From: Burkholderiaceae bacterium
Lineage (GTDB): Bacteria > Pseudomonadota > Gammaproteobacteria > Burkholderiales > Burkholderiaceae_C
Length of the DNA: 64,000 nt
Assembly: GCA_046348065.1 (NCBI GenBank)
Contig: JAXMFA010000013.1
Coordinates: 27,407-91,406, forward strand
Reading direction: 5' to 3'
The position numbers and the translations under genes are program-made. Of this stretch, positions 10,500 to 62,343 are shown one piece after another; position 1 is the stretch's first letter; each line of letters starts with the position of its first letter. The notes under the pieces were generated by a model that was not told the origin of the DNA, ran no database searches, and saw only the letters and a list, made by a program, of their open reading frames with translations.

Positions 10500-10516
10500 T
10501 GACGAGGCCCCTGGAC

Positions 10517-12092: not shown

Positions 12093-12113
12093 GCGGCCAG
12101 CACGCGACGGGCC

Positions 12114-13573: not shown

Positions 13574-13593
13574 ATGGATACTCATTTATCCAT
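13574..13593. promoter_or_regulatory. palindrome ATGGATA-N6-TATCCAT in the divergent LysR/aminotransferase promoter region; candidate LysR-type binding site
   Basis: atggatactcatttatccat lies 16 nt upstream of the LysR start. LysR regulators typically bind T-N11-A dyads in divergent promoters. Confidence 0.4.
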
Positions 13594-13609
13594 GTTCAGT
13601 TGACAATTC

Positions 13610-14569: not shown

Positions 14570-14609
14570 ACCCAGCACCGGATGGCCACGAGCCGCTATG
14601 AATTCAGGA
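14546..14609 (+). repeat. R65 dispersed intergenic element, copy c
   Basis: gatttcacaagcaaaatggcctgaacccagcaccggatggccacgagccgctatgaattcagga. Overlaps the last codons of the LysR gene. Confidence 0.65.
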
Positions 14610-14635
14610 TCGCTCAATCCCGTTACACTCAGCCC

Positions 14636-15016: not shown

Positions 15017-15068
15017 TGCCGGTTCACACGCCAACCTTTTCTTTTTTTCTTGTCCTGGGAGCTGAACC

Positions 15069-15416: not shown

Positions 15417-15442
15417 ACCGGGCAGCAGCAGGGTATACGGCC

Positions 15443-16840
15443 TCAGGAGCCTTCGGGCGCTGGTGAAGTCTTGCGCGGGCGGCGCGCGCGTGAAGGCGTC
15501 TTGCCATCTCGGGCCGAGGCGGCGTCGGCAGTGATGTCGCCGGGCAGGGCGGGGGCCGAGGGCGTCGACACCCCGTTCGTTTGATCCGTCATGACGTCGT
15601 CGGACCCCCCGCGTTGCGCCGCGGGTTTGCGCGTGCGGCGACCGCGGCCGCGGGATTCGTCCGGTGCCGCGGCCGGGTCCACGGCCCGGGTTGTTGCCGT
15701 TTCGGCCGAATCGCCAGCGCTCGCGCCGGTCGGCTCGCCAGCGCTGCCGTCGTCGGCCCCGGCGACACGGTCGGTGGGCTGCTCATCCCCGCTGCGCCCC
15801 CGGCGACTGCGCGCGCCGCGTCCCCCGCGCCCGGCTGGCGCGGAAGGTTCGGCGGGTTCGGTGTCGATTGGTTCGGCCTCGGAAACGGGGGTGGCCACGG
15901 CGGTTGGTTCCGCCTGAAAGTAACGCGAGGCCGGCCGTTCCTGCGGCGCGTCCGGGCGCGCTGGTGCAGCGGGAATTGCCTGGGTGCCGTTGACGGGGCT
16001 GGACGGGCTGGCCGCAGTGCCGCTGTGGCGGAACACGTAGGCGCCGGATTTTTCGTCGCGCCCGAAGGCCAGCAGGCGCAGGGCTTGCGCTTCTTCCAGC
16101 AGGTTGCCGAAGGTGCGGAAGCCGTAGGCGCCTTCGCTGAAGCCGGGGTTGCGGCGCTTGATGGCTTCCTTGAGCACCGAGGCCCAGATCTTGCCGCTGT
16201 CCCCGCGTTCGGCCACCAGGGCCTCGAAGGTTTCCACGGCGATTTCCACGCCGGCCAGGCGGCGGCGCTCCTGGTCTTCGCGGCGGGCGCGGTCTTCCTC
16301 GGGAGCCCGGCGCGGCGCCGGTTGGCCGTCCGCGGGCTGGCGGCGCGCGCTGGCGCGCTGCTTCTCGCGCACCAGGTCGTCGTAGAAAATGAATTCGTCG
16401 CAGTTGGCGATCAGCAGGTCGGAGGTGGAGTTCTTCACGCCCACGCCGATCACCTGCTTGGCGTTCTCGCGCAGCTTGGACACCAGCGGCGAGAAGTCCG
16501 AATCGCCGCTGATGATCACGAAGGTGTTGACATGGCTCTTGGTGTAGCAGAGGTCCAGCGCGTCCACCACCAGGCGGATGTCGGCCGAGTTCTTGCCCGA
16601 CTGGCGCACATGGGGAATCTCGATCAGTTCGAAGTTGGCCTCGTGCATCGTGGCCTTGAAGGCCTTGTAGCGGTCCCAGTCGCAATAGGCCTTCTTGACC
16701 ACGATGCTGCCCTTGAGCAGCAGGCGCTCCAGCACCGGCTTGATGTCGAATTTTTCGTACTTGGCGTCGCGCACGCCGAGGGCGACGTTCTCGAAGTCGC
16801 AGAACAGCGCCATGCTGAGGGTGTCGGGGGATTGGGCCAT
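15443..16840 (-). CDS. NYN (LabA-like) domain protein with OST-HTH/LOTUS domain and long low-complexity C-terminal tail
   Basis: N-terminal LFCDFENV...SADIRLVVDA...FVIISGDSDFSPLV (NYN/PIN-like). Mid-region ASVLKEAIKRRNPGFSEGAYGFRTFGNLLEE (OST-HTH-like). About 180 aa of Pro/Ala/Arg/Asp-rich tail. Confidence 0.8.
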   Translation of the reverse strand: MAQSPDTLSMALFCDFENVALGVRDAKYEKFDIKPVLERLLLKGSIVVKKAYCDWDRYKAFKATMHEANFELIEIPHVRQSGKNSADIRLVVDALDLCYTKSHVNTFVIISGDSDFSPLVSKLRENAKQVIGVGVKNSTSDLLIANCDEFIFYDDLVREKQRASARRQPADGQPAPRRAPEEDRARREDQERRRLAGVEIAVETFEALVAERGDSGKIWASVLKEAIKRRNPGFSEGAYGFRTFGNLLEEAQALRLLAFGRDEKSGAYVFRHSGTAASPSSPVNGTQAIPAAPARPDAPQERPASRYFQAEPTAVATPVSEAEPIDTEPAEPSAPAGRGGRGARSRRGRSGDEQPTDRVAGADDGSAGEPTGASAGDSAETATTRAVDPAAAPDESRGRGRRTRKPAAQRGGSDDVMTDQTNGVSTPSAPALPGDITADAASARDGKTPSRARRPRKTSPAPEGS

Positions 16841-17002
16841 GGGGTTTTTCGTCGGATGGGTGGGCGATCATCCCACGGCTGGCACCTCTGCGGCGCCGGG
16901 GAGCCCGCAAAAGCGGCAAAAGCTTGATGCAGATGGGGTGCGCTGCGGCGATGGCGTGCTACCTTGCCGCTCAGACCTTGACCCGACCCGAGGAGACCGA
17001 TC

Positions 17003-18577
17003 ATGAAAACACTCAGTGGCGTCGATGGCGCCTTCCTGCACCTGGAAACGCCCGAAACCCCGATGCACGTGGCCTCGCTGAGCCTGTTCGAGCTGCCGCC
17101 GGGCTACAAGGGCAGGTTTTTCAACGACGTCAAGCGCGAGATCCGCAAGCGCCTCGGTCTGGTGCCGGTGTTCACCCGCAAGCTCGCGCCGATGCCGCTG
17201 CAGTTCGCCAATCCCGCCTGGATCACGCAGGAGCGGGTCAACCTCGGCTACCACCTGCAGCATCTGACGCTGCCGGCGCCCGGCACGCTGGCCCAGCTCG
17301 AAGACTGCGTGGGGGCGCTGCATTCCGAACTGCTCGACCGCAGCCACCCGTTGTGGCGGCTCTACATCATCGACGGCCTGGCGTCCGGGCTGGTGGGCTA
17401 TTACGTCAAGGTTCACCACGCGGTGCTCGACGGGCAGGCCGGCGTGATGCTGGCGCAGGCGTTGTTCGACGTCACGCCCGAAGGCCGGGTGCTCGCGCCC
17501 GGCGCGCCACTGCATGAAGAGCATCCGGGCCGCGCCGAGCTGGCCGCCGCCGCGCTGCGCCACGATGTGGGCCAGTACGTGAAACTGGTGCGCCACCTGC
17601 CCGATGTGGTGAAAGCGCTGGCCGGCATGTTTGGCGCGCGCGCACCGCAGGCGGCGAAGGGGCGCCTCGGCCAGAACTTCTCGTTCGGGCCCCGCACCGA
17701 GCTGAACGTGCCCATCACCGGCGAGCGCGGCTTCGCGGCGGCCTCGATCCCGATGGCCACCCTCAAGCAACTGGCCACCGCGCACGAGGCCAAGCTCAAC
17801 GACGTGGTCATGGCGCTGTGCAGCGGCGCGCTGCGGCGCTACCTGGCCGCACACGGCGGCATCCCGAAGAGACCGCTGATCGCCTCGATGCCGATCTCGT
17901 TGCGTGCCCCCGGCAACACCGAATACACCACACAGGCCACGTTGAGCCTGGTCAACCTGAACACCCACATCGCCGACCCGGTGAAACGCCTGCTGGCCAT
18001 CCGCGACGCGGCCGGCGCGGTGAAAGCCATGGCGCGGCAGGTCAGCGGGGTGATTCCCACCGACTTCCCGTCGATCGGCGTGCCATGGGTACTGCACGGC
18101 CTGGCCGAGTGGTACGGCCATTCGTCGCTGGCCAAGGCCATGCCGCCGGTGGCCAACGTGGTGATCTCCAACGTGCCGGGTCCGCAGGTGCCGCTGTACG
18201 CCAGCGGCGCGCGCATGGTGACCTACTGGCCGCTGTCGATCCCCGAGCACGGCGTGGGCCTGAACATCACCGTGATGAGCTATGCAGGCGCGATGGGCTT
18301 CGGCTTCACCACCGCGCGCTGCGCGGTGCCCGACGCGCGCGAACTCAGCGCCGCTCTGATGGACGCACTGGATGAACTGGTGCAGCGCACCAAGCCGGCG
18401 GAGAGACCACGCAAGCGCCCGGCGGCCGCAGCTGCCACCCAGGCGCCGAAAAAGTCCGTGTCGCCGGGCAGAAAGGCCGCCGCGTCGGCGCCCAAACCAG
18501 CGGTCAAGGCGGTTGCGCGCAAGACCGCCGCTGCGAAAGCACCGGGCGGCGACGCCAGGCGGCGTCAGAAACCGTAG
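17003..18577 (+). CDS. WS/DGAT family acyltransferase, paralogue 2, with basic Ala/Lys/Pro-rich tail
   Basis: HHAVLDGQAG (HHxxxDG), NDVVMALC and SNVPGP. The tail (KPAERPRKRPAAAAATQAPKKS...KAVARKTAAAKAPGG) overlaps the 3' end of the convergent MipA gene by 13 nt. Confidence 0.9.
   Translation: MKTLSGVDGAFLHLETPETPMHVASLSLFELPPGYKGRFFNDVKREIRKRLGLVPVFTRKLAPMPLQFANPAWITQERVNLGYHLQHLTLPAPGTLAQLEDCVGALHSELLDRSHPLWRLYIIDGLASGLVGYYVKVHHAVLDGQAGVMLAQALFDVTPEGRVLAPGAPLHEEHPGRAELAAAALRHDVGQYVKLVRHLPDVVKALAGMFGARAPQAAKGRLGQNFSFGPRTELNVPITGERGFAAASIPMATLKQLATAHEAKLNDVVMALCSGALRRYLAAHGGIPKRPLIASMPISLRAPGNTEYTTQATLSLVNLNTHIADPVKRLLAIRDAAGAVKAMARQVSGVIPTDFPSIGVPWVLHGLAEWYGHSSLAKAMPPVANVVISNVPGPQVPLYASGARMVTYWPLSIPEHGVGLNITVMSYAGAMGFGFTTARCAVPDARELSAALMDALDELVQRTKPAERPRKRPAAAAATQAPKKSVSPGRKAAASAPKPAVKAVARKTAAAKAPGGDARRRQKP

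Positions 18578-20857: not shown

Positions 20858-20861
<4 letters not shown>
19650..20861 (+). CDS. efflux transporter periplasmic adaptor (HlyD/MacA-like membrane fusion protein)
   Basis: ATG at 19650 in ORF 19545..20861. Coiled-coil hairpin region (AQAQAAVRQAEAAV...), YTEIRAPFDGVV lipoyl motif. Stop overlaps the next start (ATGA). Confidence 0.85.
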
Positions 20862-21604
<743 letters not shown>

Positions 21605-21622
21605 GGCCCCGGTCCCTGCACC

Positions 21623-22783
21623 ATGTTCCTGCTGCGCCTGCTGTTCAAGAACGCGTTTCGCCACCGGCTGCGCACCATGCTGACCATGGTCGGCCTGGTG
21701 GTGGCGATCTGCGCCTTCGGCCTGCTGCGCACCATCGTCGACGCCTGGTACGCCGGGGTGGAGGGCACGTCCAGCACCCGGCTGATCACGCGCAACTCGA
21801 TTTCACTGACCTTTCCGCTGCCGCTGAGTTACGCCGAACGGCTGCGCAGCGTCGAAGGCGTCACCGGGCTCAGCTGGTCGAACTGGTTCGGCGGCGTCTA
21901 CATCACCGAGCGCAACTTCTTCCCGCAGTTCGCGGTGGACGCGCCGAGCTACCTGGCGCTCTACCCCGAGTACGTGCTGAACGACGACGAGAAGAAGGCC
22001 TTCCTGCTGGACCGCCAGGGGGTGATCGTGGGACGCAAGCTCGCCGACACCTACGGCTGGAAGGTGGGCGACCAGATCGCGCTGCGCGGCACCATCTACC
22101 CCGGCACCTGGGTGTTCAACCTGCGCGGCTTCTGGGATGGCGTGGACGCCAAGACCGACGAGTCGCAGATGCTGCTGCACTGGCAGTACCTGTCGGAGAC
22201 CGCGCGCAAGCGCCTGGGCCGCAGCATGGCCGATTACGTGGGCGTGTACGTGCTGCGCATCGACCAGCCGGACAACGCGCCGGTCGTGGCCGAGCGCATC
22301 GACACGATGTTCCGCAACTCGCTCGCCGAGACGCTGACCGAGACCGAAAAAGCCTTCCAGCTCAGCTTTGTCTCGATGAGCGAGACCATCCTGGTGGCGA
22401 TCAGCGCGGTCAGCCTGGTGATCGTGGTCATCATCATGGCGGTGATGGCCAACACCATGAGCATGACCGCACGCGAGCGGCTGTCGGAATACGCCACGCT
22501 GAAGGCGCTGGGCTTTCCGCCGGGCTTCATCGTCAAGCTGCTGTTCGGCGAGAGCCTGGTCATCGCGCTGCTCGGCGGCGGCCTGGGCCTGGCGCTGACG
22601 CTGCCGGTGGCGGCAGCCTTCGCCCAATCGGTGGGCACCTTGTTTCCGGTGTTCCGGGTGTCGGAACTCACGATGGCGCTGCAGTTGCTGGCGAGCGTGG
22701 TGGTCGGCGTGGTCGCCGCCGCCTGGCCGGCCTGGAAGATGAGCCGCATCAGCATCGTCAACGGGCTGCGTCACGTGGCATGA
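21623..22783 (+). CDS. ABC transporter permease (FtsX/MacB-like)
   Basis: N-terminal TM helix, large periplasmic domain and C-terminal FtsX-type 3-TM bundle ([15 protein letters not shown]). Confidence 0.85.
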
Positions 22784-23949
22784 AAGCGATACCGTTGTCG
22801 TATATCGCCCGCAACCTCTGGGTGCGCCGGGTCACCACGCTGCTGACGGCCGGGGGCATGGCGCTGGTGGTGTTCGTGTTCGCCACGGTGCTGATGATGG
22901 GCGAGGGCATCCGCGCCACGCTGGTGGCCACCGGCCAGCCTGACAACGTGCTGCTGCTGCGCAAGGGCGCGGGCGCCGAGATCAACAGCGGCATCGAGCG
23001 CGGCCAGGCCGCCATCGTCGAAAGCCTGAGCGGCATCGCCACCGACGGCGAGGGCCGGCGGCTGGTCAGCAAGGAGCCGGTGGTGCTGATCAACCTGCCC
23101 AAGCGCAGCAACGGCAAGCCGAGCAACGTCACGGTGCGCGGCACCTCGGCGACGGGCATGGCGCTGCGCCCGCAGGTGCGCCTGATCGAAGGCCGCATGT
23201 TCCGCCCCGGCACCTCGGAAATCATCGCCGGCCGTTCGGTGGCCAGCGGCTTTCGCGGCGCGGCGCTGGGCGAGACGCTGCGCTTCGCCCAGCGCGACTG
23301 GGTGGTGGTGGGCGTGTTCGATTCCGGCAAAACCGCCTTCGACAGCGAGATCTGGGGCGACGCCGAGCAGATGCTGGCGGCCTTCCGCCGCCCGGTGTAT
23401 TCGACGATGGTGTTCCGCCTGGCCGAACCTGACGGGCTGGGCCGCATGAGGGACGCGATCGAGGCCGACCCGCGCCTGAAGCTCGACGTGAAGGCCGAGA
23501 CCCAGTTCTACGAAGAGCAAAGCCAGGCGCTGGCCACCTTCATCCGCATCCTGGGGCTGAGCCTGTCCATCATCTTCTCGATCGGTGCCATCGTGGGCGC
23601 CATGATCACCATGTTTGCCGCGGTGGCGCAGCGCGTGGGTGAGATCGGCACCCTGCGTGCGCTGGGTTTCCGGCGCGGGGCGGTGCTGGTGGCGTTTCTG
23701 GGCGAATCGCTGCTGCTGTCGCTGGTGGGTGGCGTGGTGGGGCTGGCGGCTGCCTCCGGCATGCAGGCGGTGGACATCTCCACCACCAACTTCCAGACCT
23801 TCAGCGAGATCGCGTTCCAGTTCCGCCTGACCCCGGCGATCGTGGTGCAGACGCTGCTGTTCGCGCTGGCCATGGGCCTGGTCGGAGGTTTCATCCCGGC
23901 CTGGCGCGCGGCGCGCCTGAAGATCGTCGATGGGCTGCGGGCGGCCTGA
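22780..23949 (+). CDS. ABC transporter permease (FtsX/MacB-like), second copy
   Basis: Same architecture (LRALGFRRGAVLVAFL). Start overlaps the previous stop. Confidence 0.85.
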   Translation: MKAIPLSYIARNLWVRRVTTLLTAGGMALVVFVFATVLMMGEGIRATLVATGQPDNVLLLRKGAGAEINSGIERGQAAIVESLSGIATDGEGRRLVSKEPVVLINLPKRSNGKPSNVTVRGTSATGMALRPQVRLIEGRMFRPGTSEIIAGRSVASGFRGAALGETLRFAQRDWVVVGVFDSGKTAFDSEIWGDAEQMLAAFRRPVYSTMVFRLAEPDGLGRMRDAIEADPRLKLDVKAETQFYEEQSQALATFIRILGLSLSIIFSIGAIVGAMITMFAAVAQRVGEIGTLRALGFRRGAVLVAFLGESLLLSLVGGVVGLAAASGMQAVDISTTNFQTFSEIAFQFRLTPAIVVQTLLFALAMGLVGGFIPAWRAARLKIVDGLRAA

Positions 23950-25253: not shown

Positions 25254-25265
25254 AGGAGCGTGACC

Positions 25266-25961
25266 ATGAACCCGCCCGTGATCCGTGACGAACTGGGCCT
25301 ACTGGACGGCCTGGTGGATCTGGCCCGCCACCCGCGCGTCATCGAACTCGGTTGTGGCGCGGCGCAGCTCTCGCGCCGGCTGCTGGAGCGCTTCGAAGGC
25401 GCCGAGGTGACCGCGCTGGAGGTGGACGAGCGCCAGCATGCCAAGAACCTCGCCAGCCCGCAGGCACGGCTGACCTTCGTCGCGGCCGGCGCACAGGCGA
25501 TCCCGTTCGAGGCCGGCCGCTTCGACCTGGCGCTGATGTTGAAATCGCTGCACCACGTGCCGCTGGACCTGCTCGATGCCGCGCTGGCCGAGGTGCATCG
25601 CGTGCTGCGCCCGGGCGGGCTGCTGTACGTGTCGGAGCCGGTGTTTGCCGGCGCGCTGAACGAGGTCATGCGCCTGTTCCACGACGAGCAGGTGGTGCGC
25701 GCCGCGGCACTGGCCGCGCTGCACCGGGCGATCGCCTCGGGCGCGTGGGAGGCGGTGAGCGAGACCTTCTTCGACGTGCCGGTGCACTACCGCGACTTCG
25801 CCGAATTCGAGCAGCGCATGATCGGCGTCACCTACCAGAACCACCGCCTCGACGCCGCCACCCTGGCCGCCGTGCGTGCGCGCTTCGAGCCACACATGGG
25901 CGCCGACGGAGCCCATTTCGTGCGGCCAATGCGCGTCAACCTGCTCAGAACGCGCGACTGA
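25266..25961 (+). CDS. class I SAM-dependent methyltransferase
   Basis: VIELGCGAAQL (motif I) and LRPGGLLYVSEP. AGGAG RBS precedes the ATG at 25266 (the ORF track starts at GTG 25260). Confidence 0.85.
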   Translation: MNPPVIRDELGLLDGLVDLARHPRVIELGCGAAQLSRRLLERFEGAEVTALEVDERQHAKNLASPQARLTFVAAGAQAIPFEAGRFDLALMLKSLHHVPLDLLDAALAEVHRVLRPGGLLYVSEPVFAGALNEVMRLFHDEQVVRAAALAALHRAIASGAWEAVSETFFDVPVHYRDFAEFEQRMIGVTYQNHRLDAATLAAVRARFEPHMGADGAHFVRPMRVNLLRTRD

Positions 25962-26030
25962 GGGCGTTTTTTCGCATCGTATTGGCCGCTTCCCAGCGCC
26001 GGACGGCCACGAAGTGCTATGAAAAAAGGA
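25962..26030 (+). repeat. R65 dispersed intergenic element, copy e
   Basis: gggcgttttttcgcatcgtattggccgcttcccagcgccggacggccacgaagtgctatgaaaaaagga. Confidence 0.75.
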
Positions 26031-26152
26031 CTATCCAGAGGGTGCGGCGACGACGGTCTCGCCGTTGCGGCGCAGGGACAGAGCGCTTGCACAGTCAATA
26101 CAGGGCACAAGGCGACTGCTCGTCGACCAGTAACCGTCTCGGTCCAGGTGGC

Positions 26153-52906: not shown

Positions 52907-53931
52907 TTGGCGGGCGCTTCGGCCGCGATGTTCAGCGAGAACGCCTGGCTGAACACCCGCTGGCCCGCGTTGGTGACCTGGTACTCCGCGCGGTAGGTTC
53001 CGGCCGGCCAGGGGGCGGACGCCCGTTTGCGCCCGATCAGGCTCAGGCTCTGCGCCTGGGCCCGCTCCAGGGCCGGCTGTTGGCGTTCGGCGATCACGGT
53101 GCCGTCCGGCGCGCGCAAGGTCAGCCGTGCGGCATCGCCGGGCTCCAGGCCGATCATGCGCACCCAGGCCACCAGCGCGGAGCTCTGCCCGTTGGGCCTC
53201 CCCGCGTCGGGTGGCAGGTTCTCGACCTCGGCCATCGTGAGCGCCCGGTCGCTGAAGCCGTGGTTCAGCAGCACACGGCGGCGGTACGCCAGCGCCTGGG
53301 CGGTCGCCGCATCCCACAGCGTCTGGCCGGACCCGCAGGCGCCGGCCACCGGCGCGGGCGCGAACGGGTCGACCGCCTTGCCCTGGCGGCGGATCGTCAG
53401 GTGCAGGTGCGGGAATTCGGTCAGGCCCGACAGGCCGACCAGCCCGAGCCGCTCGCCGGCGCGCACCGTCTGGCCGCGCCGCACCGCGACGCTGCCCTGG
53501 GCCAGATGGCAGTACTGTGTCTCCCAGCCATCGGCGTGGCGCAGCACCAGGCCGTTGCCGCATTCGCGGTTCTTGACGGCTTCCTTGCCGGTCTCGCGGA
53601 TCGACACGTCGGTCATGCCGTCGCGCACACCAGCGACCACGCCGTCGGCGGCCGCCAGCACCGCCACGCCCGCGCGCACCGCTGCCATCGAGGGCACGCG
53701 AAAATCGGTGCCGTCGTGCCCGTCGTACGTGCGCGCGCCGCAGGCGTAGTCGCGCCAGGCCGGCGACGGATCGTGGTCGACATAGTTCTGCACGAAACAG
53801 CTGGCGCCGGGTACACAGTCGATGGGCAAGGCAAAACGCGGCCCCTGCGCCCCCTCGTTCGCCAGGGCCGCCGGCATCCCGCCCAGGAGCGCCCAGGCCA
53901 GGAAAAACGGTGCAAAACGGCTAGAAATCAT
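52903..53931 (-). CDS. M23 family metallopeptidase, secreted
   Basis: Signal peptide, HDGTDF (HxxxD) and FPHLHLTI (HxH) zinc motifs. Confidence 0.85.
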   Translation of the reverse strand: MISSRFAPFFLAWALLGGMPAALANEGAQGPRFALPIDCVPGASCFVQNYVDHDPSPAWRDYACGARTYDGHDGTDFRVPSMAAVRAGVAVLAAADGVVAGVRDGMTDVSIRETGKEAVKNRECGNGLVLRHADGWETQYCHLAQGSVAVRRGQTVRAGERLGLVGLSGLTEFPHLHLTIRRQGKAVDPFAPAPVAGACGSGQTLWDAATAQALAYRRRVLLNHGFSDRALTMAEVENLPPDAGRPNGQSSALVAWVRMIGLEPGDAARLTLRAPDGTVIAERQQPALERAQAQSLSLIGRKRASAPWPAGTYRAEYQVTNAGQRVFSQAFSLNIAAEAPAN

Positions 53932-53997
53932 GGTTTTTCAGCATGAAATATGGCTCTTTCCAGCGTCGGACGGCCACGACATGCTATCAATTCAGGA
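53929..53997 (+). repeat. R65 dispersed intergenic element, copy j (left flank of CRISPR-Cas cassette)
   Basis: catggtttttcagcatgaaatatggctctttccagcgtcggacggccacgacatgctatcaattcagga. Shares the cgacatgctatca-ttcagga variant only with copy k. Confidence 0.8.
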
Positions 53998-54216
53998 TTT
54001 TCTGTGACGACCGACGGCTCATTTTCACCCTGTTGACTGAGGCATCGATGCCCGTCCGGGCCGACAACCCGACAGGCGATGATGAAATCCTCCGGTATTC
54101 AAGTCTCAATAACGCCGCGACTCGCCGTCCCAAGGCAAGCCGAGTTCGCGGCTCGCCGATTTCCGGGCGCCGAACTGACAATAATGAATGTCCTGTCACA
54201 CCCCCACGGAGGCCCC

Positions 54217-55368
54217 ATGGCGAACACCGATTTGTACGAATCCCTCTTGTCCGCAGCCGAGCATGCATCGGCCATCACCTTGCGGGCCAACCTGATCCCG
54301 GCTAATGCCGTCGCCGGCGATGAAAAGTTCTTTGTGCTGCCTCCGACCTATGCCGAGGTTGGCCATCTGGCATCGCACATCCGGGAAGACGGAACGCACG
54401 AGTACATCCTGATCGACTCGCCGCAAAGCTGGGCCAACCGGCTCGAAGAATTGCTCGACCGCCCCGAGGTTGGCGTGGCGCCCATCCGGGTGCAGGCAGC
54501 GGGCCACACGCTGAGCATCAACCAGTTGCCGCACCGGGTGTTCGATGCCCTGCTGCGAGACTCCGAACTCGACGGCAAGGCGTTTCGCGAAACCGCCCTG
54601 GGACAGTCACTGACGCAGGCCCGCGCCGACAACGCGACCGCTTTGTTGCAAAGCGCGCCGGGCACGCTGCTGTTCGGCGCCTGGGACAGCTTTGCAGGCG
54701 CTCGCATGGGCGCTGCCAAATGGCCGGCGGCGCTGTCGGGGCAGATCATGGGTTTTGACGCCCTGCAGACCAAAAAGGCGGGCATCCGGATGGACCCGCT
54801 CAACATTGCCAAAGACGCCGTGACGGGCTTCAAGTCGGAAAGCCGGGCCGAGAGCTGGACCACCGACGAAACCCATGCCGTGAAAGACCCGAAAGGCAAC
54901 CCCGTACCCGTGGGCAAGGCGTCGGAAATCGGGCATGGCCACATCCTCGCGGAACTGGCCACCAAGGGGGCCTGGGTCAGCCGGATCGAACTACGCTCGT
55001 CGCTGTCGCTGACCCGCTTGCGCCGCTACCACTTTCCGGTCAATGGCCAGCCGAGCGAAGCCGCCGACCTGGCGGCGCGCACCTACCTGGCGGCCCTGGC
55101 CCTTTGGCTGATGCACACCCGCATGATGGCCGGGCTGGAACTGCGGGCCGGCGCTGAACTCGACGCGACCGAAGCCACCTTCCTGGTGCGAAAGCCGCTG
55201 GAGGGCGATGTGGCCCTGTCACTTTCAGGCGACGCGGTGGCGCAGGCCCTGGCCAAGGCCATCGCAAAGGCCCGCGAGGCTGGCTTCACGTTTGCCGGCC
55301 CCACCGTGTTTGCCGCGTCGGCCCGGCTCACCCGGCTCATCGAAACCAGCGAAGCCCTGAACCAATGA
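54217..55368 (+). CDS. csb1: type I-U/I-G CRISPR-associated Cas7-like protein (Csb1-like)
   Basis: ATG at 54217 with GGAGG RBS. LLFGAWDSFAGARMGAAKWPAALSGQIMG resembles the Csb1/Cas7u core. Position is immediately upstream of, and translationally coupled (ATGA) to, csb2. Confidence 0.7.
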   Translation: MANTDLYESLLSAAEHASAITLRANLIPANAVAGDEKFFVLPPTYAEVGHLASHIREDGTHEYILIDSPQSWANRLEELLDRPEVGVAPIRVQAAGHTLSINQLPHRVFDALLRDSELDGKAFRETALGQSLTQARADNATALLQSAPGTLLFGAWDSFAGARMGAAKWPAALSGQIMGFDALQTKKAGIRMDPLNIAKDAVTGFKSESRAESWTTDETHAVKDPKGNPVPVGKASEIGHGHILAELATKGAWVSRIELRSSLSLTRLRRYHFPVNGQPSEAADLAARTYLAALALWLMHTRMMAGLELRAGAELDATEATFLVRKPLEGDVALSLSGDAVAQALAKAIAKAREAGFTFAGPTVFAASARLTRLIETSEALNQ

Positions 55369-56645
55369 AGCTCACCGTCGAGTTTCTGGGCCTGTACGGC
55401 GCGGCCGATGTGGCGTCACGTGCTCAGGTGGAATGGCCCCCGCACCCGGACCGGCTCTACCAGGCACTGGTCGATGCCGCGCTGCCCGAAGACCGCCCAG
55501 CCCTGGCCTGGATCGAAGAACAGGGCCCGCCCGACGTGGACTGCGGCGACAGCGTCGCGCTGCACTGGGGGCGCAAGGGCAAGGTCTTTGTGCCCACCAA
55601 CTACCCCAGCGACACCTTGCCGGCCCTGCGCAAGAACCAGGAGCGGCAGTTCCCCATGGCCTTGCCGGACGGCCCCGTGCGCTATGTCTGGGCGGCAGAC
55701 CCGCCCAAGCCCGTCTACGAATGCATTCGCCGCTCGGTGGGGCGGGTCACACACCTGGGGCGCGCCGACTCGCTGGTGATGGCCGCGCTGGAGCCGGGCG
55801 CGTCCGCGTGCCGCTGGACCGCACGCGACGACGGGACGCTGACGATGCGCGTGCCATTTCGCGGGCGGTTGCGGCAACTGGATGCCGCGTTTGAAAGCCA
55901 ACAGCGCAGCGCCCTGGCGCCGGCCGTACGGTATGGCAACTCGGCCGAGCGCGCGCAACAGGGCCCGTGGGAAGGGTTGATCGTGATGCGCGTGGCCAAA
56001 CCCGTTGCAGTGGAACATGTGGCCCAAGCCACCGATGCGCTGCGCCGGGCGGTGCTGTCGCGTCTGGGGGACGACGCCCCGCTGCTGGCGCATGGCCATG
56101 CCCAGGCCATGCATCTCGCCTGGCTGGGTTTGCCCAATCTCAGCGACTACGGCGACGGCACGATTCTGGGTCTGGCGATGGCGGTGCCTCGTGACTGTTA
56201 CAGCCTGGAGCGTGCCCGCTGCGTGGGGGCGATGCTCTCGGTGGACCACATCATGCTGGCCGGCTTGCGGATCAACCTGACCCGGCCGAACGCAGCGATG
56301 TCCTTGCACGAACGCACCTGGAGCCGCCCCAGCCGTTGCTGGGCGTCGGCCACGCCGCTGGTGCTGGACCGCTTTCCCAAGGGCAAGCTCACGGCCGAAG
56401 AGATCGTGGCCCAGGGTTGCGAGCGTGCCGGCTACCCCCGGCCCAGCCGGGTGGCACTCGCGCAGGTCAGCGCCCTGCCCATGCCGCCAGCGCGGCAGTT
56501 CCGCCTTCGCAAGCCGGGCAGTCTGTACGCTCACGCCACGCTGGAATTCGATCAACCGGTGCAGGGGCCGTTGCTGGTGGGCAAAGAGCGGTACTTTGGC
56601 CTGGGCCTTTTTCTGCCCCACGATGCGCGAGCCCCGAGTGACTGA
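55365..56645 (+). CDS. csb2: type I-U/I-G CRISPR-associated Cas5/Cas6-fusion-like protein (Csb2-like)
   Basis: N-terminus MKLTVEFLGLYGAADVASRAQVEWPPHPDRLYQALVDAAL matches the recalled Csb2 signature (EWPPSPxRLFQALV). C-terminus FGLGLFLP is typical of RAMP G-rich loops. Confidence 0.8.
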   Translation: MKLTVEFLGLYGAADVASRAQVEWPPHPDRLYQALVDAALPEDRPALAWIEEQGPPDVDCGDSVALHWGRKGKVFVPTNYPSDTLPALRKNQERQFPMALPDGPVRYVWAADPPKPVYECIRRSVGRVTHLGRADSLVMAALEPGASACRWTARDDGTLTMRVPFRGRLRQLDAAFESQQRSALAPAVRYGNSAERAQQGPWEGLIVMRVAKPVAVEHVAQATDALRRAVLSRLGDDAPLLAHGHAQAMHLAWLGLPNLSDYGDGTILGLAMAVPRDCYSLERARCVGAMLSVDHIMLAGLRINLTRPNAAMSLHERTWSRPSRCWASATPLVLDRFPKGKLTAEEIVAQGCERAGYPRPSRVALAQVSALPMPPARQFRLRKPGSLYAHATLEFDQPVQGPLLVGKERYFGLGLFLPHDARAPSD

Positions 56646-56780
56646 CGAAAGCCCCGGAGGTTCGCGCACGGTGTTTGCAAACGCGCCCGGTTAGGGGCCG
56701 CTGACTTCTTCATCGGAGGTGGACGGTTCGCGCCAAGTCGGGATGAAATGAAGCTGTGAGAAGGGCTTGGCGGCGATGAG
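56646..56780 (+). promoter_or_regulatory. putative CRISPR leader
   Basis: 135-nt non-coding stretch upstream of the best-conserved repeats. Degenerate repeats lie at the opposite end. Confidence 0.4.
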
Positions 56781-57397
56781 CTTGATTCCCGGTTATGGAC
56801 CGGGCTACGTTGAAGGGGCGCCAATGGCGGCACCATCGTGGGCCTGAGCGACGGTTGATTCCCGGTTATGGGCCGGGCTACGTTGAAGGGAGTCGTGACA
56901 CCCTGCGGAATCGACGGCGCCCGAGCTTGATTCCCGGTTATGGACCGGGCTACGTTGAAGGGCTGACGATTCCGCCAAAGACGGCGCATGGGGCAGGCTT
57001 GATTCCCGGTTGTGGACCGGGCCACGTTGAAGGGAGGTCAAGCGCGACTACACCCTGACCGAGCAGCACGGTTTATTCCCGGTTATGGGCCGGGCTACGT
57101 TGAAGGAACCCAGGCGACCCCCTGTTGGTGGACACTGGCGTGCTTGATTCCCGGTTGTGGGCCGGGCTACGTTGAAGGATGGACCGCTATGGCGATCAGT
57201 CGTTGCTGGTTCACGGTTAATTCCCGGTTATCGGCCGGGCTACGTTGAAGATCGAAACGGCAGTCGGTGACGACAAAGCGCGTGCGCGGTTGATTCCCGG
57301 TCTTTGACTGGGCTACGTTGAAGGAAGCACGGCTCCATGACCGACGGCGCCGAGACGTATGGTTGATTCCCGGTCATTGACCGGGCTGGGTTTGGCG
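56781..57397 (+). CRISPR. CRISPR array: 9 repeats of 36 nt (last two degenerate), 8 spacers of 36-37 nt
   Basis: Repeats start at 56781, 56854, 56926, 56998, 57071, 57143, 57216, 57289 and 57362. Consensus is sttgattcccggttatggrccgggctacgttgaagg with a 6-bp hairpin (cccggt/accggg) and a gttgaagg 3' end. Confidence 0.92.
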
Positions 57398-57477
57398 GCA
57401 ACATCTGGCGCGATGGGTACGCTTGCCGTCAATGCACCGCTATGCTGCGAAGGCGGGACAACAAGGGATGGACTGGC

Positions 57478-59772
57478 ATGGAAAAAAAGATCTTTTCGGC
57501 GTTCTATGAGTCATTGCACGGGTATGCCCCGTTCCCCTGGCAGATTGAGCTGGCCCGGCGCGTGGCCGACGGTCGCTGGCCCGATGCGCTGAACCTGCCC
57601 ACCTCGTCGGGCAAGACGGCGGTGGTCGATGTGTGGTTGTGGGCACATGCGATGGGCGTGCTGGGCGCGCCCCGGCGCCTCTACTACGTGATCGACCGTC
57701 GCTTGCTGGTGGATGCGGTGGCCGACTACGCGCAGGCGCTGTTTGCCCGCAGCGGGGTTGTGGGGCAGGTGGTGCGTCTGCGTGGCGGACTGGGCGCCAA
57801 AGACGATGCGTGGATGTTGAACCCGGCGGGCCTGACGCTCGTGAGCACCACGCTGGATCAATTGGGCTCGCGCCTGTTGTGTCGCGCCTACGGGGCGAGC
57901 CGGTGGGCGGCCCCCGTGCACGCGGGGCTCGCGGGCAACGATGCGCTGATCGTGATCGACGAAGCGCACCTGGTGGAGCCGTTTCGGCAGACGCTGCACC
58001 GCATCGGGCGTTACCGACAACGGGCAGTCGAGCCGCTGGCCAGCCCCTGGCACCTGGTGACCATGACAGCAACCCCGCTGGGCGATGCGACCGATGTGTT
58101 GGCCCTATCGGACGAGGACCGGGCCCACCCGGTGCTGAGCCGGCGCCTGAACGCGGCCAAGCTCACGCGGCTGGTGAACGGCAAGCAGGACGACCTGACG
58201 AGCGAGGCTCTGCGCCTGCGCGCGGGCGGCGCCTCGGTGGTGGGGGTGGTGGTGAATACCGTGGACACCGCGCGTCGGGTGCATCGAACCCTTTCGGCGC
58301 AAGGTGACTGTCTGCTGATCATTGGCAGGGCCCGTCCGCTGGAGCGGGATGTGTTGGGTCAGGAGGTGATGCAGCGCGCCGGCAGTGGGACCCGCAGCGC
58401 CGGGCGAACGCCCTTGTTCGTGGTGGCCACGCAGACGATTGAGGTGGGGTTGGACCTCGACTTTGATGCGCTGGTTTCGGAGCTGGCGCCCGTCAGCGCG
58501 CTGCGGCAGCGGCTGGGGCGGCTGGATCGCCTGGGTGAACTGGGCGCCAGCGCGGCCAGTATCGTGAAAGTGCCCGCTGCCCGCTGGCCCTATGCGAAGG
58601 GGCTGCTGGACGATGCGTGGGGCTGGCTGGAGTCGGCGGCAGAGAAATCGCGCCAGTTGGGCAAGGTGGTGAACCTGGGCATTGCCGCACAGGTGCCGGC
58701 CCCGCCCGAGCCGGCGCTGCGGTCCGTCGTGCTGGGCCTGCCCGACCTGCCCGTACTGTTCGACCCGGCGGTGGACCTCGACATTACGCCCTACCTGCAC
58801 GGCGAAAAACGTTCGACCGAAGTGTTCGTGGCGTGGCGTCGTGCGCTGGACGAGACGCCGCCCGAAGAATGGGGTGACGCCATCGAATCAGACCCGCCGT
58901 CGGCGCTGGAACTGATGCCGATGCCGCTGCACACGCTGCGTCGCTGGCTGCAGGGCGAATCCAGCCAAGCGTCGGACCTGGAAAGCACGGCAGTGCCGGA
59001 TGATGAACCGGCTCGCCACGAACGCATCGCGCAGGTGCTGTGCTGGGACGGTGAGGCGGCCGAGCTGGTGAGCCCAGCTGCGCTGCGCCTCACCGACGTG
59101 GTGGTGCTGCCCGCGTCCATCGGTGGGTGCGACCGCTTTGGCTGGAACCCAGCCAGCAAGGCGCCCGTACGCGATCTGTTTGCCGACGGCCTGATTCAGA
59201 AACCGGGCTGGACCGGCAGCAACGAGCGCACCCGGTGGGCGATTGGGCTGGCTGAGCACATGGCGGGTGTGGGCGCCAAGGCGCTTGCGCTGGCGACAGC
59301 CTGCGGACTGCCTGACGGGCTGGGCCGCGCGCTGGACGAGGCTGGACGCCTTCACGACCTGGGGAAGAACGACCCGCGCTTTCAGCTGATGCTGGGGGCG
59401 TATGGTGGCCCCTTGCTGGCCAAGAGCGGGAGCCATGAAGTGACGGTGTCGAGAAAGCTCGCGGGCTTGCCACGTGGTTGGCGGCATGAGCTGGCCTCGG
59501 TGGCGCAGCGCATCGACATCGACCCCCTGGTGCTGTACTTGGTGGGTTCACACCACGGGCGCGGCCGCCCCTGGATGCCCGCTGCCGCCGACCCCCGGCT
59601 GTGGCGCCAGGCGAGGGGCGCAGAGTGGCCGGCCCTGGCCAGCGCGATGCGCGACCGCTTCGGATTCTGGGGGCTGTGCTACCTCGAAGCGGTCTTGCGC
59701 CTGGCCGATTGGGCGCGCAGTGCTGAAGAACAGGACGAGGCCCAAACTGTGGAGGATGGCCATGCCGCTTGA
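57478..59772 (+). CDS. cas3: type I-U/I-G style Cas3 helicase-nuclease (helicase N-terminal, HD domain C-terminal)
   Basis: ATG at 57478. PFPWQIELA, PTSSGKT (Walker A), VIDEAHL (DEAH), QTIEVGLDLDFD. C-terminal HD motifs HDLGKNDPRF and GSHHGRGRP. Confidence 0.88.
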   Translation: MEKKIFSAFYESLHGYAPFPWQIELARRVADGRWPDALNLPTSSGKTAVVDVWLWAHAMGVLGAPRRLYYVIDRRLLVDAVADYAQALFARSGVVGQVVRLRGGLGAKDDAWMLNPAGLTLVSTTLDQLGSRLLCRAYGASRWAAPVHAGLAGNDALIVIDEAHLVEPFRQTLHRIGRYRQRAVEPLASPWHLVTMTATPLGDATDVLALSDEDRAHPVLSRRLNAAKLTRLVNGKQDDLTSEALRLRAGGASVVGVVVNTVDTARRVHRTLSAQGDCLLIIGRARPLERDVLGQEVMQRAGSGTRSAGRTPLFVVATQTIEVGLDLDFDALVSELAPVSALRQRLGRLDRLGELGASAASIVKVPAARWPYAKGLLDDAWGWLESAAEKSRQLGKVVNLGIAAQVPAPPEPALRSVVLGLPDLPVLFDPAVDLDITPYLHGEKRSTEVFVAWRRALDETPPEEWGDAIESDPPSALELMPMPLHTLRRWLQGESSQASDLESTAVPDDEPARHERIAQVLCWDGEAAELVSPAALRLTDVVVLPASIGGCDRFGWNPASKAPVRDLFADGLIQKPGWTGSNERTRWAIGLAEHMAGVGAKALALATACGLPDGLGRALDEAGRLHDLGKNDPRFQLMLGAYGGPLLAKSGSHEVTVSRKLAGLPRGWRHELASVAQRIDIDPLVLYLVGSHHGRGRPWMPAAADPRLWRQARGAEWPALASAMRDRFGFWGLCYLEAVLRLADWARSAEEQDEAQTVEDGHAA

Positions 59773-60595
59773 GTTGAACCCGATGCAGGGACATGTGCCG
59801 GTGGGTTTCATGGCGGCCGTCGGGCTGCTGCGCGTTGCGCCCCAAGGTGCGCGCCTGAGCTGGAACCCGACCAGCCAGACGGCCGAGTTGCACGGTGTGG
59901 AGCGTGAGGCGATCCTGGACCACCTGGTGGCCCACATGGCGGGACGGCATCAGTCGCCCGAGCTGCAGATTGCGGACGACGTGCGCAAGTTCGATGTCGA
60001 GGCGTTCCGGGCGCAGTACGATGCGGCCGATGAATCGTTGGCCGAGTGGCTGAGGGCCTGGTGGCGCGAAGACGGCAAGGATGGCAAGGCCGAGACGACC
60101 GACCTCTGTTTGACCGGCGGTCCGCAGCGCATGATCAAGATGGCCCGGGAACTGGCGCAAGACCTGGACCCGACTCGCAAGAAGGGTGCGGAAAAGGCGG
60201 TGCGCGCGAAGTTCGAGGAGGCTTTGTTTGGCCCCTGGCGATATGCGGATGCCCGCGCCAGCTGGGGGTGGGACCCGGCAACCTATCGCCCCGGTGCGCT
60301 GACCAGCGACGCCCCAACATCGATGAAGTTGGCGGGGGTGGCGGGCGCGTACTGGCTGGCTTGGGAATCGCAGCCGCTGTTTCCATGCCTGCACGGGCAG
60401 GGAACCCTGGGGTTTGAGCACCGGCCCCGGGCGTGGACCTGGCCCACCTGGGCCGAGCCGCTGGACATTCACGCGGTACCGGCACTGTTGCGGCAGCCCC
60501 AGGAGGCGCCGGCACTGGGTGGCAAACGTTACCGATCAGGCATTGTGTTTGCCGGGCAGATTCAGTGGTTTGAGCCGGGGATGGTGGTAGGGTAG
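59762..60595 (+). CDS. uncharacterised CRISPR-associated protein, 277 aa, translationally coupled to cas3 (possibly the Cas3-extension / small Cas8u-like family)
   Basis: ATG at 59762 overlaps the cas3 stop (ATGCCGCTTGA). Trp-rich (WGWDPATYRPG, AYWLAWES, WTWPTWAEP). No motif I can assign with certainty. Confidence 0.55.
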   Translation: MPLELNPMQGHVPVGFMAAVGLLRVAPQGARLSWNPTSQTAELHGVEREAILDHLVAHMAGRHQSPELQIADDVRKFDVEAFRAQYDAADESLAEWLRAWWREDGKDGKAETTDLCLTGGPQRMIKMARELAQDLDPTRKKGAEKAVRAKFEEALFGPWRYADARASWGWDPATYRPGALTSDAPTSMKLAGVAGAYWLAWESQPLFPCLHGQGTLGFEHRPRAWTWPTWAEPLDIHAVPALLRQPQEAPALGGKRYRSGIVFAGQIQWFEPGMVVG

Positions 60596-60599
60596 GTCA

Positions 60600-60703
60600 A
60601 ATCGACCACAGAACGGGGTGAAACGGCCAAAAAGCATGGGTTTTTGGGCCTGAATCGGGCGATACCCAAGGCCAAATGGCCACGACATGCTATCAGTTCA
60701 GGA
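60600..60703 (+). repeat. direct duplicate of 53895..53997: remnant of the M23 gene 5' end plus R65 element copy k (right flank of CRISPR-Cas cassette)
   Basis: The reverse complement of 60600-60637 reads ATGCTTTTTGGCCGTTTCACCCCGTTC (MLFGRFTPF) versus the M23 start MISSRFAPF. It is followed by catgggtttttgggcc...ggccacgacatgctatcagttcagga. Confidence 0.75.
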
Positions 60704-60750
60704 GCGTCAAGAATCCGGACCGATGGCGCGACCGATGCCGGCCCCGCCCT

Positions 60751-62343
60751 TCACGCCCGGGTCTTGGTTGCCGTGCCAGCCTTGCGGGCGGGGGCTGGCT
60801 TGGCGGCAGGCTTGCGCGAAGGCCTGACCCCGGCTTTCGGGGCCGGTGCCTTCGTGGCGGCAGCCTTGACCACAGGTGCCTTGGGCGCAGCGGCCTTTCG
60901 GGCGGGTGATTTTGTGGCCGCGGGCTGTCTGACCGGCGCTTTGGCTTTGGCGGGGGTTCTGGCCATGGTTTTGGCGGGTGCCTTGCGGGCCGCCGGTCGG
61001 GCTTTCGGGCCGGCCGGCTTGACCGTGGACTTCAGCATCTTGCGGAACTCGCTGTTGAACGCGTCGGTGATGAGCTCGGGGTCGGGCACCAGGTGCGCGT
61101 CGCCGATCACGGTCAGCCCGGCCAGACCTTTGTAGCTGAAGATGCTCACCGCCATGCCCAGTTCCTTGCCGGGGTGCGGTGCCCAGGCCAGCATGCGTTC
61201 GATCGGCACGCCGGCCAGGTACAGCTCTTCGCGCGGGCCGGTGACGTTGGTCATCACCAGGCTGGCCTTGCGGCCGAACAGGTTGTTGGAGAAGTCCTCC
61301 AGCGCCTTGGGCATGCGGCCCATCAGGTCGAGCAGGGCGCGCGTGGCCAGCGGTTCGGGCGAGTGCTTGAGCGCGTCCATGCGGGCCTTGGTCAGCGCGA
61401 TGCGGTGGTCGGCGCGCGCCTTGGTCACGGCGAGATCGAGCAGCACCAGGCCGAACTCGTTCCCGAGCTGTCCCATGCGCTCGGGCGGGCGCAGGTCCAC
61501 CGGCACCATGGCGCGCAGCGTGGTGTGGTCGACGTCGACGCCGCGGCCCTTGAGGTAGGTGCGCAGCGCGCCGGTCATCGCGGCCACCAGCACGTCGTTG
61601 ACCTTGGCGTCGTGGCGCAGGCCGATCGCCTTGATATCGGCGATGGGGAAGGGCACCGACCAGGCCACGCGCTTGGCCGGCGCGAACTTGCCCTTGAGCG
61701 GCGAAGGCGGGTCGTCCTTGCGCAGCAACTCGCCGACCAGCATGCCGGCGCCGCCGACCAGCGCCACCGCATCACGCGCGGCCCCGGCGACGGCGTTGAA
61801 CGCCGGTGCCAGCAGACCCTTCTCGGCGTGCGCGATGCTCTTGCCGCGCGCCTTCGGGCCTTGCAGGGGCGGCGCGCCGGGTGCCGGGTCGTAGAGGCGC
61901 TGGAGCAGGATCATCATCGCCGTGCCGTCGGCGATGCAATGGTGGCAGCGCATGATGAGCGCGCTGCCGCCTTCGACGTCGTCGACGACCCAGGTCTGCC
62001 ACAGCGGCAGCGAGTGGTCCAGCGGGGCGCTGGCGATGTCGTTGACCAGCTCCATCAGCGCCGCCTGGGTGTGGGGCGCGGGCAGGGCGATGTGGTGCAG
62101 GTGCTGGTTGATGTCGAAGTCGGGCATGTCCTGCCAGTGCGGCGTGGGCAGCGGAAAGCCGGTCTCGACCACGCGTTGGCGGAAGCGCTCGAAGGTGACC
62201 AGGCGCTCGCTGTAGACCTGGCGCACCCTTTCGAAGTCCAGGGGCTTGCGCGTCAGCGTCACGCCCATGATGACGGCCAGGTTGGCAGGCCCGTCGTTGT
62301 GGAACCAGGAGGCGTCGGCGGCCGACATGGGGTAGGTTTTCAT
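60751..62343 (-). CDS. WS/DGAT family acyltransferase, paralogue 4, with about 90-aa Lys/Ala/Pro-rich tail
   Basis: ATG at 62343 (MKTYPMSAADASWFHNDGPANL). HHCIADGTAM (HHxxxDG). Tail is KARPAARKAPAKTMARTPAKAKAPVRQPAATKSPARKAAAPKAPVVKAAATKAPAPKAG... Confidence 0.88.
   Translation of the reverse strand: MKTYPMSAADASWFHNDGPANLAVIMGVTLTRKPLDFERVRQVYSERLVTFERFRQRVVETGFPLPTPHWQDMPDFDINQHLHHIALPAPHTQAALMELVNDIASAPLDHSLPLWQTWVVDDVEGGSALIMRCHHCIADGTAMMILLQRLYDPAPGAPPLQGPKARGKSIAHAEKGLLAPAFNAVAGAARDAVALVGGAGMLVGELLRKDDPPSPLKGKFAPAKRVAWSVPFPIADIKAIGLRHDAKVNDVLVAAMTGALRTYLKGRGVDVDHTTLRAMVPVDLRPPERMGQLGNEFGLVLLDLAVTKARADHRIALTKARMDALKHSPEPLATRALLDLMGRMPKALEDFSNNLFGRKASLVMTNVTGPREELYLAGVPIERMLAWAPHPGKELGMAVSIFSYKGLAGLTVIGDAHLVPDPELITDAFNSEFRKMLKSTVKPAGPKARPAARKAPAKTMARTPAKAKAPVRQPAATKSPARKAAAPKAPVVKAAATKAPAPKAGVRPSRKPAAKPAPARKAGTATKTRA

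Follow-up and report, generated by a model that had tools for sequence, protein, structure and literature searches.

A short-Cas8g type I-G CRISPR-Cas cassette with an array inside the operon and no adjacent adaptation genes in a clade of Burkholderiales

We analyzed a 64,000-nucleotide stretch of DNA from a Burkholderiaceae bacterium (contig JAXMFA010000013.1, positions 27,407 to 91,406; the whole stretch is called the window below, and coordinates are those of the window unless another locus is named). On its + strand, between 54.2 and 60.6 kb, lie four intact open reading frames (ORFs) and one CRISPR array, a locus that profile typing identifies as type I-G (formerly I-U) CRISPR-Cas. Its last gene encodes a protein identified by family profile and predicted fold as a short form of the large subunit Cas8g. 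The position of the array between csb2 and cas3, together with the lack of adjacent adaptation genes, is specific to one Burkholderiales clade. We think that the locus is probably a functional, interference-only type I-G cassette belonging to the short-Cas8g branch. Its elements, with protein lengths in amino acids (aa) and other lengths in nucleotides (nt), are as follows.

54217-55368, + strand: cas7g/csb1, 383 aa, backbone subunit on the CRISPR RNA (crRNA); PF09617, TIGR02570, PADLOC Cas7g
55365-56645, + strand: csb2, 426 aa, Cas5-Cas6 fusion that is the type I-G signature, presumed pre-crRNA endonuclease
56780-57397, + strand: CRISPR array, nine 37-nt repeats and eight 35-36-nt spacers, period 72-73
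57478-59772, + strand: cas3g, 764 aa, superfamily 2 helicase with a C-terminal HD nuclease
59762-60595, + strand: short cas8g (cas8s), 277 aa, large subunit

The cassette was typed with three profile libraries, Pfam, NCBIfam/TIGRFAM and PADLOC, and all three agree. Cas7g matched PF09617 (E = 1.9e-35), TIGR02570 (6.5e-21, above the cut-off) and PADLOC Cas7g (4.6e-32). For Csb2, the matches were TIGR02165 (1e-66, covering model positions 4-491 of 492) and PADLOC Cas56g (1.8e-112), and for Cas3g they were TIGR02621 (4.2e-193, 644 bits with a cut-off of 400) and PADLOC Cas3g (4.6e-201). A previous reading of this DNA by a model that had only the sequence (the sequence-only reading) had described a type I-U/I-G-like cassette. 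Typing with hidden Markov models bears this out for Csb1, Csb2 and Cas3, and the order and coordinates it gave for genes and array hold as well, all elements being present and at most a few bases off. Starting at the ATG at 54217 gives Cas7g the 383 aa that it has in relatives, the longest ORF beginning at 54079; for Cas3g we kept the 764 aa called in public assemblies, a longer ORF beginning at 57442. The csb2 start overlaps the cas7g stop as ATGA, and cas8s overlaps the end of cas3g by 11 nt, an arrangement suggestive of translational coupling. Residues 23-37 of Csb2 read VEWPPHPDRLYQALV. The HD motifs of Cas3g are at residues 594-744, C-terminal to the helicase. Third-position GC content is 0.79-0.83 in the cas genes versus about 0.85-0.95 in most of the host genes listed.

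The 277-aa protein, which had been left as an unknown gene product, matched the PADLOC model PDLC01514 ('Cas8g, CAS-I-U effector_LS', 287 positions) with an E value of 1.7e-41 and the NCBIfam model NF049934 ('type I-G CRISPR-associated protein, Cas3-extension family') with 4.3e-42 (144.8 bits, cut-off 65), and had no match in Pfam. AlphaFold2, using an alignment of 37 homologues, produced a model with a predicted local distance difference test score (pLDDT) of 93.3 and a predicted template modelling score (pTM) of 0.92. The top Foldseek match of this model was the 649-aa Cas8g chain of a type I-G effector (PDB 8b2x, E = 7e-6, probability 1.0), and the next ones were Cas8 chains of type I-A and I-B Cascades. 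On these profile and fold matches the protein is a short Cas8g, a member of a catalogued large-subunit family. The sequence-only reading was therefore right that no Csx17-sized protein is present and wrong in treating the large subunit as missing. Cas8g is built from an N-terminal Cas8a-like domain and a C-terminal Cas11-like helical bundle, and type I-G large subunits differ considerably in size, the one in the Thioalkalivibrio sulfidiphilus structure being the largest of three variants (PMC9638904). We read the 277-aa protein as a Cas8g cut down to about the size of the N-terminal domain, the exact domain correspondence being our inference.

The short-Cas8g family is large. At 50% identity it falls into 1,973 clusters, 1,474 of them with E <= 1e-10, and nearly all the clusters are 280-340 aa long. 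Since the family comprises some 2,000 such clusters, the missing Csx17-sized subunit is normal in this branch, which we define by a protein of about 280-340 aa matching NF049934 and encoded right after cas3g, as is found in the window. One 1,332-aa homologue (P0273) carries the short-Cas8g domain at its C-terminus (residues 1028-1331) and is presumably a Cas3-Cas8s fusion; such a fusion would account for the NCBI name 'Cas3-extension family' and agrees with the translational coupling of cas3 and cas8s. Public records of these genomes annotate the short Cas8g as 'hypothetical protein', so that such loci are easily mis-scored as incomplete.

Adjacent cas4-cas1 and cas2 genes define the full type I-G system and not its effector module. 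To look for them we scanned 91 candidate ORFs from the whole window (at least 69 aa, with coding-like third-position GC content) against PADLOC. Only the four cassette genes matched Cas models, and none of the other 87 ORFs matched Cas1, Cas2, Cas4 or another Cas8 in PADLOC, in keeping with the sequence-only reading. The Cas4-Cas1 fusion and Cas2 that accompany the effector genes in a full type I-G system are thus not found beside these. The same scan returned matches to a MADS defence system, which we rejected because they look like generic domain cross-matches: mad3 (2.8e-30) and mad8 (1.2e-12) on a 248-aa ATPase (20858-21604) that adjoins two LolE-type permease-like ORFs, and a partial mad2 match on a 233-aa protein (25260-25961). 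CARF_LolE_TM models also match the 20858-23949 region.

We wondered how widely this layout is distributed and gathered 45 loci, denoted here by L numbers, through short-Cas8g homologues and repeat scans. Wherever Cas8s is at least 55% identical to that of the window, the array lies between csb2 and cas3 in every member whose contig covers that part. These internal-array members represent about 15 lineages, and all are Burkholderiales metagenome-assembled genomes (MAGs) or metagenome contigs of environmental origin. The four genes and the internal array stand on one contig in L001/L008, L003, L009, L011, L014/L015 and L033. L043 has the same layout on a contig cut within cas7g and cas8s, and further members are L010 and the partial contigs L026, L028, L031, L038, L039, L041, L044 and L045. 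The layout is also present in L007, a beta-proteobacterial MAG whose cas3 (2728-5919) is split into three overlapping ORFs in different frames and is either a pseudogene or the product of assembly frameshift errors. No locus of this clade has cas1, cas2 or cas4 in its available sequence, and none was found within 10 kb. Our literature search found no description of a csb1-csb2-array-cas3-cas8s layout.

More distant members of the branch, with Cas8s 25-37% identical to that of the window, have the order cas7-csb2-cas3-cas8s. In L004-L006 (methanogen-like context) and on the Rhodothermus marinus plasmid pRMAR01 this is followed by cas4/cas1-cas2 and an array, and in L012, L034 and the Azotobacter chroococcum plasmid pAcX50e by an array without adaptation genes. 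These loci indicate that the cas7-csb2-cas3-cas8s order, a short large subunit and even the loss of adaptation genes are normal in the short-Cas8g branch, and adaptation-less members such as pAcX50e are already in RefSeq. The Geobacter gene order, taken as reference by the sequence-only reading, is for this reason not the fitting one. The internal position of the array alone is peculiar, and it is conserved across the clade and is no one-off rearrangement.

Some further observations concern arrays of these relatives. Plasmid pAcX50e (L046), which comes from a cultured isolate, is mobilisable; the annotation of its Cas8s reads 'hypothetical protein', and the plasmid has a mini-array (10031-10228) of about three repeats whose spacers are nearly identical, matching at 94% across the full 72-nt unit. 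L027, L029, L030, L034-L036, L040 and L042 have a second repeat family, CATCCCGCGCACGCGGGCTACGTTGAAGG. It shares its 14-nt 3' end with the first and belongs to the 25-37%-identical system with the order cas7-csb2-cas3-cas8s-array (L034); in L030 a resolvase gene stands beside the array. The contig of L037 (1-8021) starts with an array that has the same 3' handle. No cas3 lies downstream of it, the genes that follow being those of an AbiEii toxin, a subtilase, TerB and superoxide dismutase, and it could represent either an orphan array or a cassette that was disrupted.

Strong purifying selection acts on all four genes of the cassette. When the window is compared with L015 (81-85% aa identity), the ratio of nonsynonymous to synonymous substitution rates (dN/dS) is 0.077 for cas7g, 0.078 for csb2, 0.095 for cas3g and 0.074 for cas8s, at a dS of about 1.4. 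In Cas3, the Walker A (residue 41), DEAH (161) and QRxGR motif VI (344) elements, the HD pair (626-627), H670, H693 and D744 do not vary among homologues, even at 39% identity. In Csb2, His390 (in YAHATLEF, about 35 residues from the C-terminus) and the adjoining G-rich loop are kept in seven of eight homologues. The catalytic histidines of characterised Csb2 proteins are H503 and H520 (PMC9638904; 10.1101/2022.08.19.504415), and by its position H390 appears to lie where these do.

The array adds three features to the list.

56646-56779, + strand: CRISPR leader, 134 nt following csb2
57034-57069, + strand: spacer 4, which matches a phage portal gene
57361-57397, + strand: degenerate terminal repeat, hairpin intact, 3' handle mutated

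The repeat consensus is GCTTGATTCCCGGTTATGGACCGGGCTACGTTGAAGG, and the repeat core has eight matches in the window versus 0.00 expected from shuffles; no second array with this repeat is present elsewhere in the 64 kb. From the degenerate last repeat and the repeat end GTTGAAGG, the leader is on the side of csb2 and the array has the orientation of the genes. In the folded repeat a 7-bp hairpin precedes a 12-nt tail, and the hairpin is maintained by compensatory changes between lineages. Repeats 1-8 of the window comprise seven variants that differ in the loop and 5' tail, apart from a single G.U wobble within the stem, a change immediately past the stem and another at the last handle base. 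Within the leader, the motif GGTTCGCG at 56725-56732, about 47 nt before the first repeat, recurs in ten lineages (the window, L003, L007, L009, L011, L014, L026, L033, L039 and L043), whose noncoding sequences have otherwise diverged beyond alignment, and is a candidate promoter or integration signal. A TTGGnGGTGAAG-like sequence was seen at the leader-repeat junction. Neither the repeat nor the leader has a family in Rfam. When compared by BLASTN with all collected loci, the upstream region, the leader, the array-cas3 gap and the downstream region gave no matches, so the cassette boundaries are not definable by homology.

A joint transcript of array and cas3 is possible, because the gap between them is only 80 nt and a simple terminator scan of 53800-60800 found no site there or elsewhere in that range. 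Such co-transcription is not obligatory in the clade, as L003 has a RelB/YafQ toxin-antitoxin pair on the opposite strand (6864-7396) between its 4-repeat array and cas3. The array of the window itself appears frozen, given that its repeats are heterogeneous and that the same eight spacers are found in six metagenome assemblies of the window strain. One record of this strain (L020, ENA ERZ28613995) has a scaffold gap of about 100 N directly after the leader-proximal repeat, which may conceal population-level spacer variation at the acquisition end.

The spacers point to phages. Spacer 4 is identical at 33 of 35 positions (E = 3e-5) to the portal gene of Pseudomonas Hollowayvirus phages; over its 36 nt there are three differences, each in a third codon position, and TTC adjoins the protospacer on its 5' side. 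Microviridae major capsid genes are matched by a spacer of L007 (31/33, E = 2e-3; flanks TTC or TTT), and a Mu-like gp29 gene is matched by one of L001 (E = 0.08; flank TTC). Three of four independent phage matches have a 5' TTC or TTT, the matched phages being relatives of the true targets, and the published protospacer adjacent motif (PAM) of type I-G is TTN (cited in PMC9638904). An exact search of IMG/VR for spacer 4 returned nothing, plasmids gave weak spacer matches only (best E = 0.2), and no short-Cas8g relatives were found in viral contigs. We saw no self-targeting in the window or in the flanks of relatives beyond chance matches of 15-21 nt or matches already known.

Relatives of the window cassette carry changing arrays. 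The arrays of L001, L014, L032 and L039 consist of 11-27 near-uniform repeats and unique spacers (24 repeats in L001, identical over the 37-nt unit, 12 in L014 and 27 in L032), and lineages have no spacers in common, near-identical strains excepted. In L028 and L044, two contigs with 98.5% identity over 2,962 bp, the trailer spacer and the degenerate terminal repeat agree, whereas the leader-side spacers differ; L031 and L044 have three trailer spacers in common and differ in the next one. Near-identical strains with different spacers imply that spacer content has changed since the clade lost its cis adaptation genes. As the clade has no such genes and its spacers nevertheless differ, the simplest explanation these comparisons suggest is a supply of spacers in trans by an unlinked Cas1-Cas2(-Cas4). 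There is precedent for adaptation in trans in Flavobacterium, where a VI-B system uses that of II-C (PMC8092290).

The surroundings of the cassette differ in every lineage. In L014/L015, whose Cas8s is 85% identical, a 16.6-kb island inserted at the 3' end of the transfer-messenger RNA (tmRNA) gene carries the cassette as cargo. The island of L014 (JGI 3300014051, 140-17203), an integrative mobilisable element, has genes for an integrase, for AlpA and for a Mob_Pre relaxase, and direct repeats of 63 nt and of the attachment-site (att) kind stand at its two ends (513-575 and 17141-17203). Judged from its genomic settings, the cassette spreads horizontally. In L003 a tRNA-Arg gene (11014-11089) follows cas8s. 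In the window, the cassette is flanked by genes for an M23 peptidase (- strand, upstream side) and a WS/DGAT acyltransferase, profile matches agreeing with the sequence-only reading on both, and by two direct repeats.

53906-53997, strand not assigned: left 92-nt direct repeat, overlapping the start of the M23 peptidase gene (- strand)
60612-60703, strand not assigned: right 92-nt direct repeat, partner of 53906-53997

The two copies are 71% identical with an 18-nt exact core, GGCCACGACATGCTATCA, and at a distance of 6,706 bp they exactly bracket the cassette. A third, shorter partial copy lies in another intergenic region at about 25975-26035, and no integrase was found at the window cassette. 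The repeats could be an att-like insertion scar or a dispersed intergenic element resembling repetitive extragenic palindromic (REP) sequences.

How would such a cassette work? The steps below are modelled on the homologous T. sulfidiphilus system (PMC9638904), from which all of the biochemistry is inferred. Transcription of the array would start in the leader or read through from cas7g-csb2. In Csb2, the Cas6-like C-terminal domain would then cut the repeat 4 nt 3' of the hairpin and stay on the hairpin, leaving the 8-nt 5' handle GUUGAAGG, and Cas7g would polymerise along the spacer. The 277-aa Cas8g may dock on this complex and hold Cas3g. A protospacer with a 5'-TTN would be opened into an R-loop, and the helicase and HD nuclease of Cas3g would degrade the DNA. 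Our view that the cassette is a working interference module draws on what was observed directly, namely the identity and intactness of the parts, the purifying selection, the clade-wide layout, the phage matches of spacers, most of them with TTN flanks, and the turnover of spacers.

Several results weigh against this view. A profile of the short Cas8g searched against PDB chains gave no match, so that only the fold comparison ties it to Cas8g, and it is less than half as long as the 649-aa chain. The weakest of the four phage matches, between a spacer of L033 and the deoxynucleoside monophosphate (dNMP) kinase gene of Variovorax phage VarioGold (30/33, E = 0.09), has the flank CTC. The array of the window has no sign of recent acquisition, and a simple sigma-70 scan of 53800-60800 found no promoter-like site. 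Among L028, L031 and L044, some of the differences in spacers are at internal positions, and these differences could be explained by recombination or deletion instead of acquisition at the leader end. Finally, no partner for adaptation in trans was found, the scan of 185,579 species-representative genomes having sought the repeat only and the incomplete MAGs not having been searched for Cas1.

Two alternatives place the origin of the spacers differently. The window could hold one part of a split locus, with a Csx17-type subunit and cas4/1-cas2 of the same repeat type elsewhere in the genome; our sequence covers 64 kb of that genome, and since the arrays of relatives turn over, adaptation machinery must exist somewhere. 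We regard this as quite unlikely: a large subunit is already encoded and coupled to cas3, the scan of species-representative genomes found the window-type repeat in three such cassettes only, two cassette-bearing MAGs have no second array of this repeat, and no cas1, cas2 or cas4 was seen on 20 metagenome contigs with the same 3' handle or on array-only contigs from the related family of repeats. Alternatively, spacers might be gained independently of Cas1-Cas2, through recombination between the arrays of co-circulating cassettes or mobile elements that shuffles an inherited pool. The shared outer and differing internal spacers of L028 and L031 have the pattern expected of recombination or deletion, the cassette is mobile, and no adaptation genes were found near any array. 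A common pool is, however, not evident among lineages that share no spacers unless they are near-identical strains, and TTN flanks with a conserved leader motif suit acquisition by an integrase, so that we consider recombination an improbable source.

It is also conceivable that the cassette is not an immune system in use. Were it an inactive type I-G relic that has lost its adaptation genes and is heading for loss, one might expect what the window array shows: seven variants among the first eight repeats, a degenerate last one and the same eight spacers in six metagenomes. This is hard to reconcile with a dN/dS of 0.07-0.10 at a dS of about 1.4 in all four genes, with ORFs intact in about 15 lineages and catalytic motifs that do not vary, with repeat mutations that fall largely outside the stem and the 8-nt handle, and with the long homogeneous arrays and unique spacers of relatives; decay seems to us very improbable. 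Little probability likewise goes to a role other than host antiviral immunity, be it as the weapon of a mobile element against competing elements or in regulation or transposition, and we rate this the least credible of the alternatives. The cassette of L014 is cargo of an integrative mobilisable element, distant adaptation-less relatives reside on plasmids, and toxin-antitoxin genes are frequent neighbours. Yet all spacer matches that can be interpreted are to genes of phages, most of them structural (portal, capsid and Mu gp29, the dNMP kinase match being weak), plasmid matches are weak, no relatives turned up in viral contigs, no transposase or TniQ is present and the Cas3 HD domain is intact.

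Among known systems, the type I-G loci of T. sulfidiphilus and G. sulfurreducens (PMC9638904) share with the window the Csb2 Cas5-Cas6 fusion, Csb1/Cas7g, a Cas3 with C-terminal HD domain, the lack of a separate cas11, a repeat of 36-37 nt that forms a hairpin and ends in a 12-nt 3' tail, a related large-subunit fold and perhaps the TTN PAM. The window differs from them in its large subunit (277 versus 649 aa), in its shorter Csb2 (426 aa) and Cas3 (764 aa), in lacking cas4-cas1 and cas2, and in the order cas7-csb2-array-cas3-cas8 in place of cas3-cas8-cas7-csb2-cas4/1-cas2-array. With the other short-Cas8g loci (NF049934/PDLC01514; pRMAR01, pAcX50e, L004-L006) it has in common the same four families with cas8s right after cas3, and in pAcX50e, L012 and L034 the adaptation genes are missing too. 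Those loci, in contrast, have the array downstream of cas8s or cas2 and a Cas3 of 860-980 aa, whereas the clade of the window has the array between csb2 and cas3, a Cas3 of about 764-780 aa and a Cas8s only 25-37% identical to theirs.

Like the adaptation-less CRISPR-Cas systems of mobile elements (plasmid type IV; Tn7-associated I-F, I-B and V-K), the cassette lacks cis cas1/cas2 and has relatives on integrative or mobilisable elements. Unlike type IV systems and CRISPR transposons, it retains intact Cas3 helicase and HD motifs and has no transposase or TniQ, and with an intact helicase-nuclease it should destroy its targets and not guide transposition or merely bind. It resembles trans-adapting systems such as Flavobacterium VI-B/II-C (PMC8092290) in having arrays that vary without cis genes, which implies a supply of spacers from outside. 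What appears distinctive on comparison of the loci is the combination of an intra-operon array throughout the clade and absent adaptation genes with spacer turnover and carriage on a mobile island.

One could join these threads into a single proposal, which we put forward tentatively and doubt as a whole. The cassette would represent a minimal lineage of type I-G, with four genes that total about 1,850 aa in 6.4 kb, which is horizontally mobile and has permanently lost its own adaptation genes and still gains PAM-selected phage spacers, through a non-cognate Cas1-Cas2 acting at the GGTTCGCG leader or by an undescribed route. The intra-operon array would let Csb2 process a single cas7g-csb2-array-cas3-cas8s transcript and so tie crRNA output to Cas3 expression, and the 277-aa Cas8g would work without a Cas11-like module.

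The short-Cas8g branch of type I-G is widespread and uncharacterised. If the cassette is active, it would be a very small type I interference module that contains Cas3, as judged from its gene lengths (383 + 426 + 764 + 277 aa), and as such appealing for long-range genome editing, in which type I systems are limited by their size. It would provide a natural test of what the C-terminal Cas11-like half of Cas8g contributes to the effector and, if the domain-reduced Cas8g is what it seems, would show that a type I effector is workable with a 277-aa large subunit and no Cas11-like module. The clade may equally serve as a natural test of how CRISPR loci without adaptation genes keep their arrays current on mobile islands.

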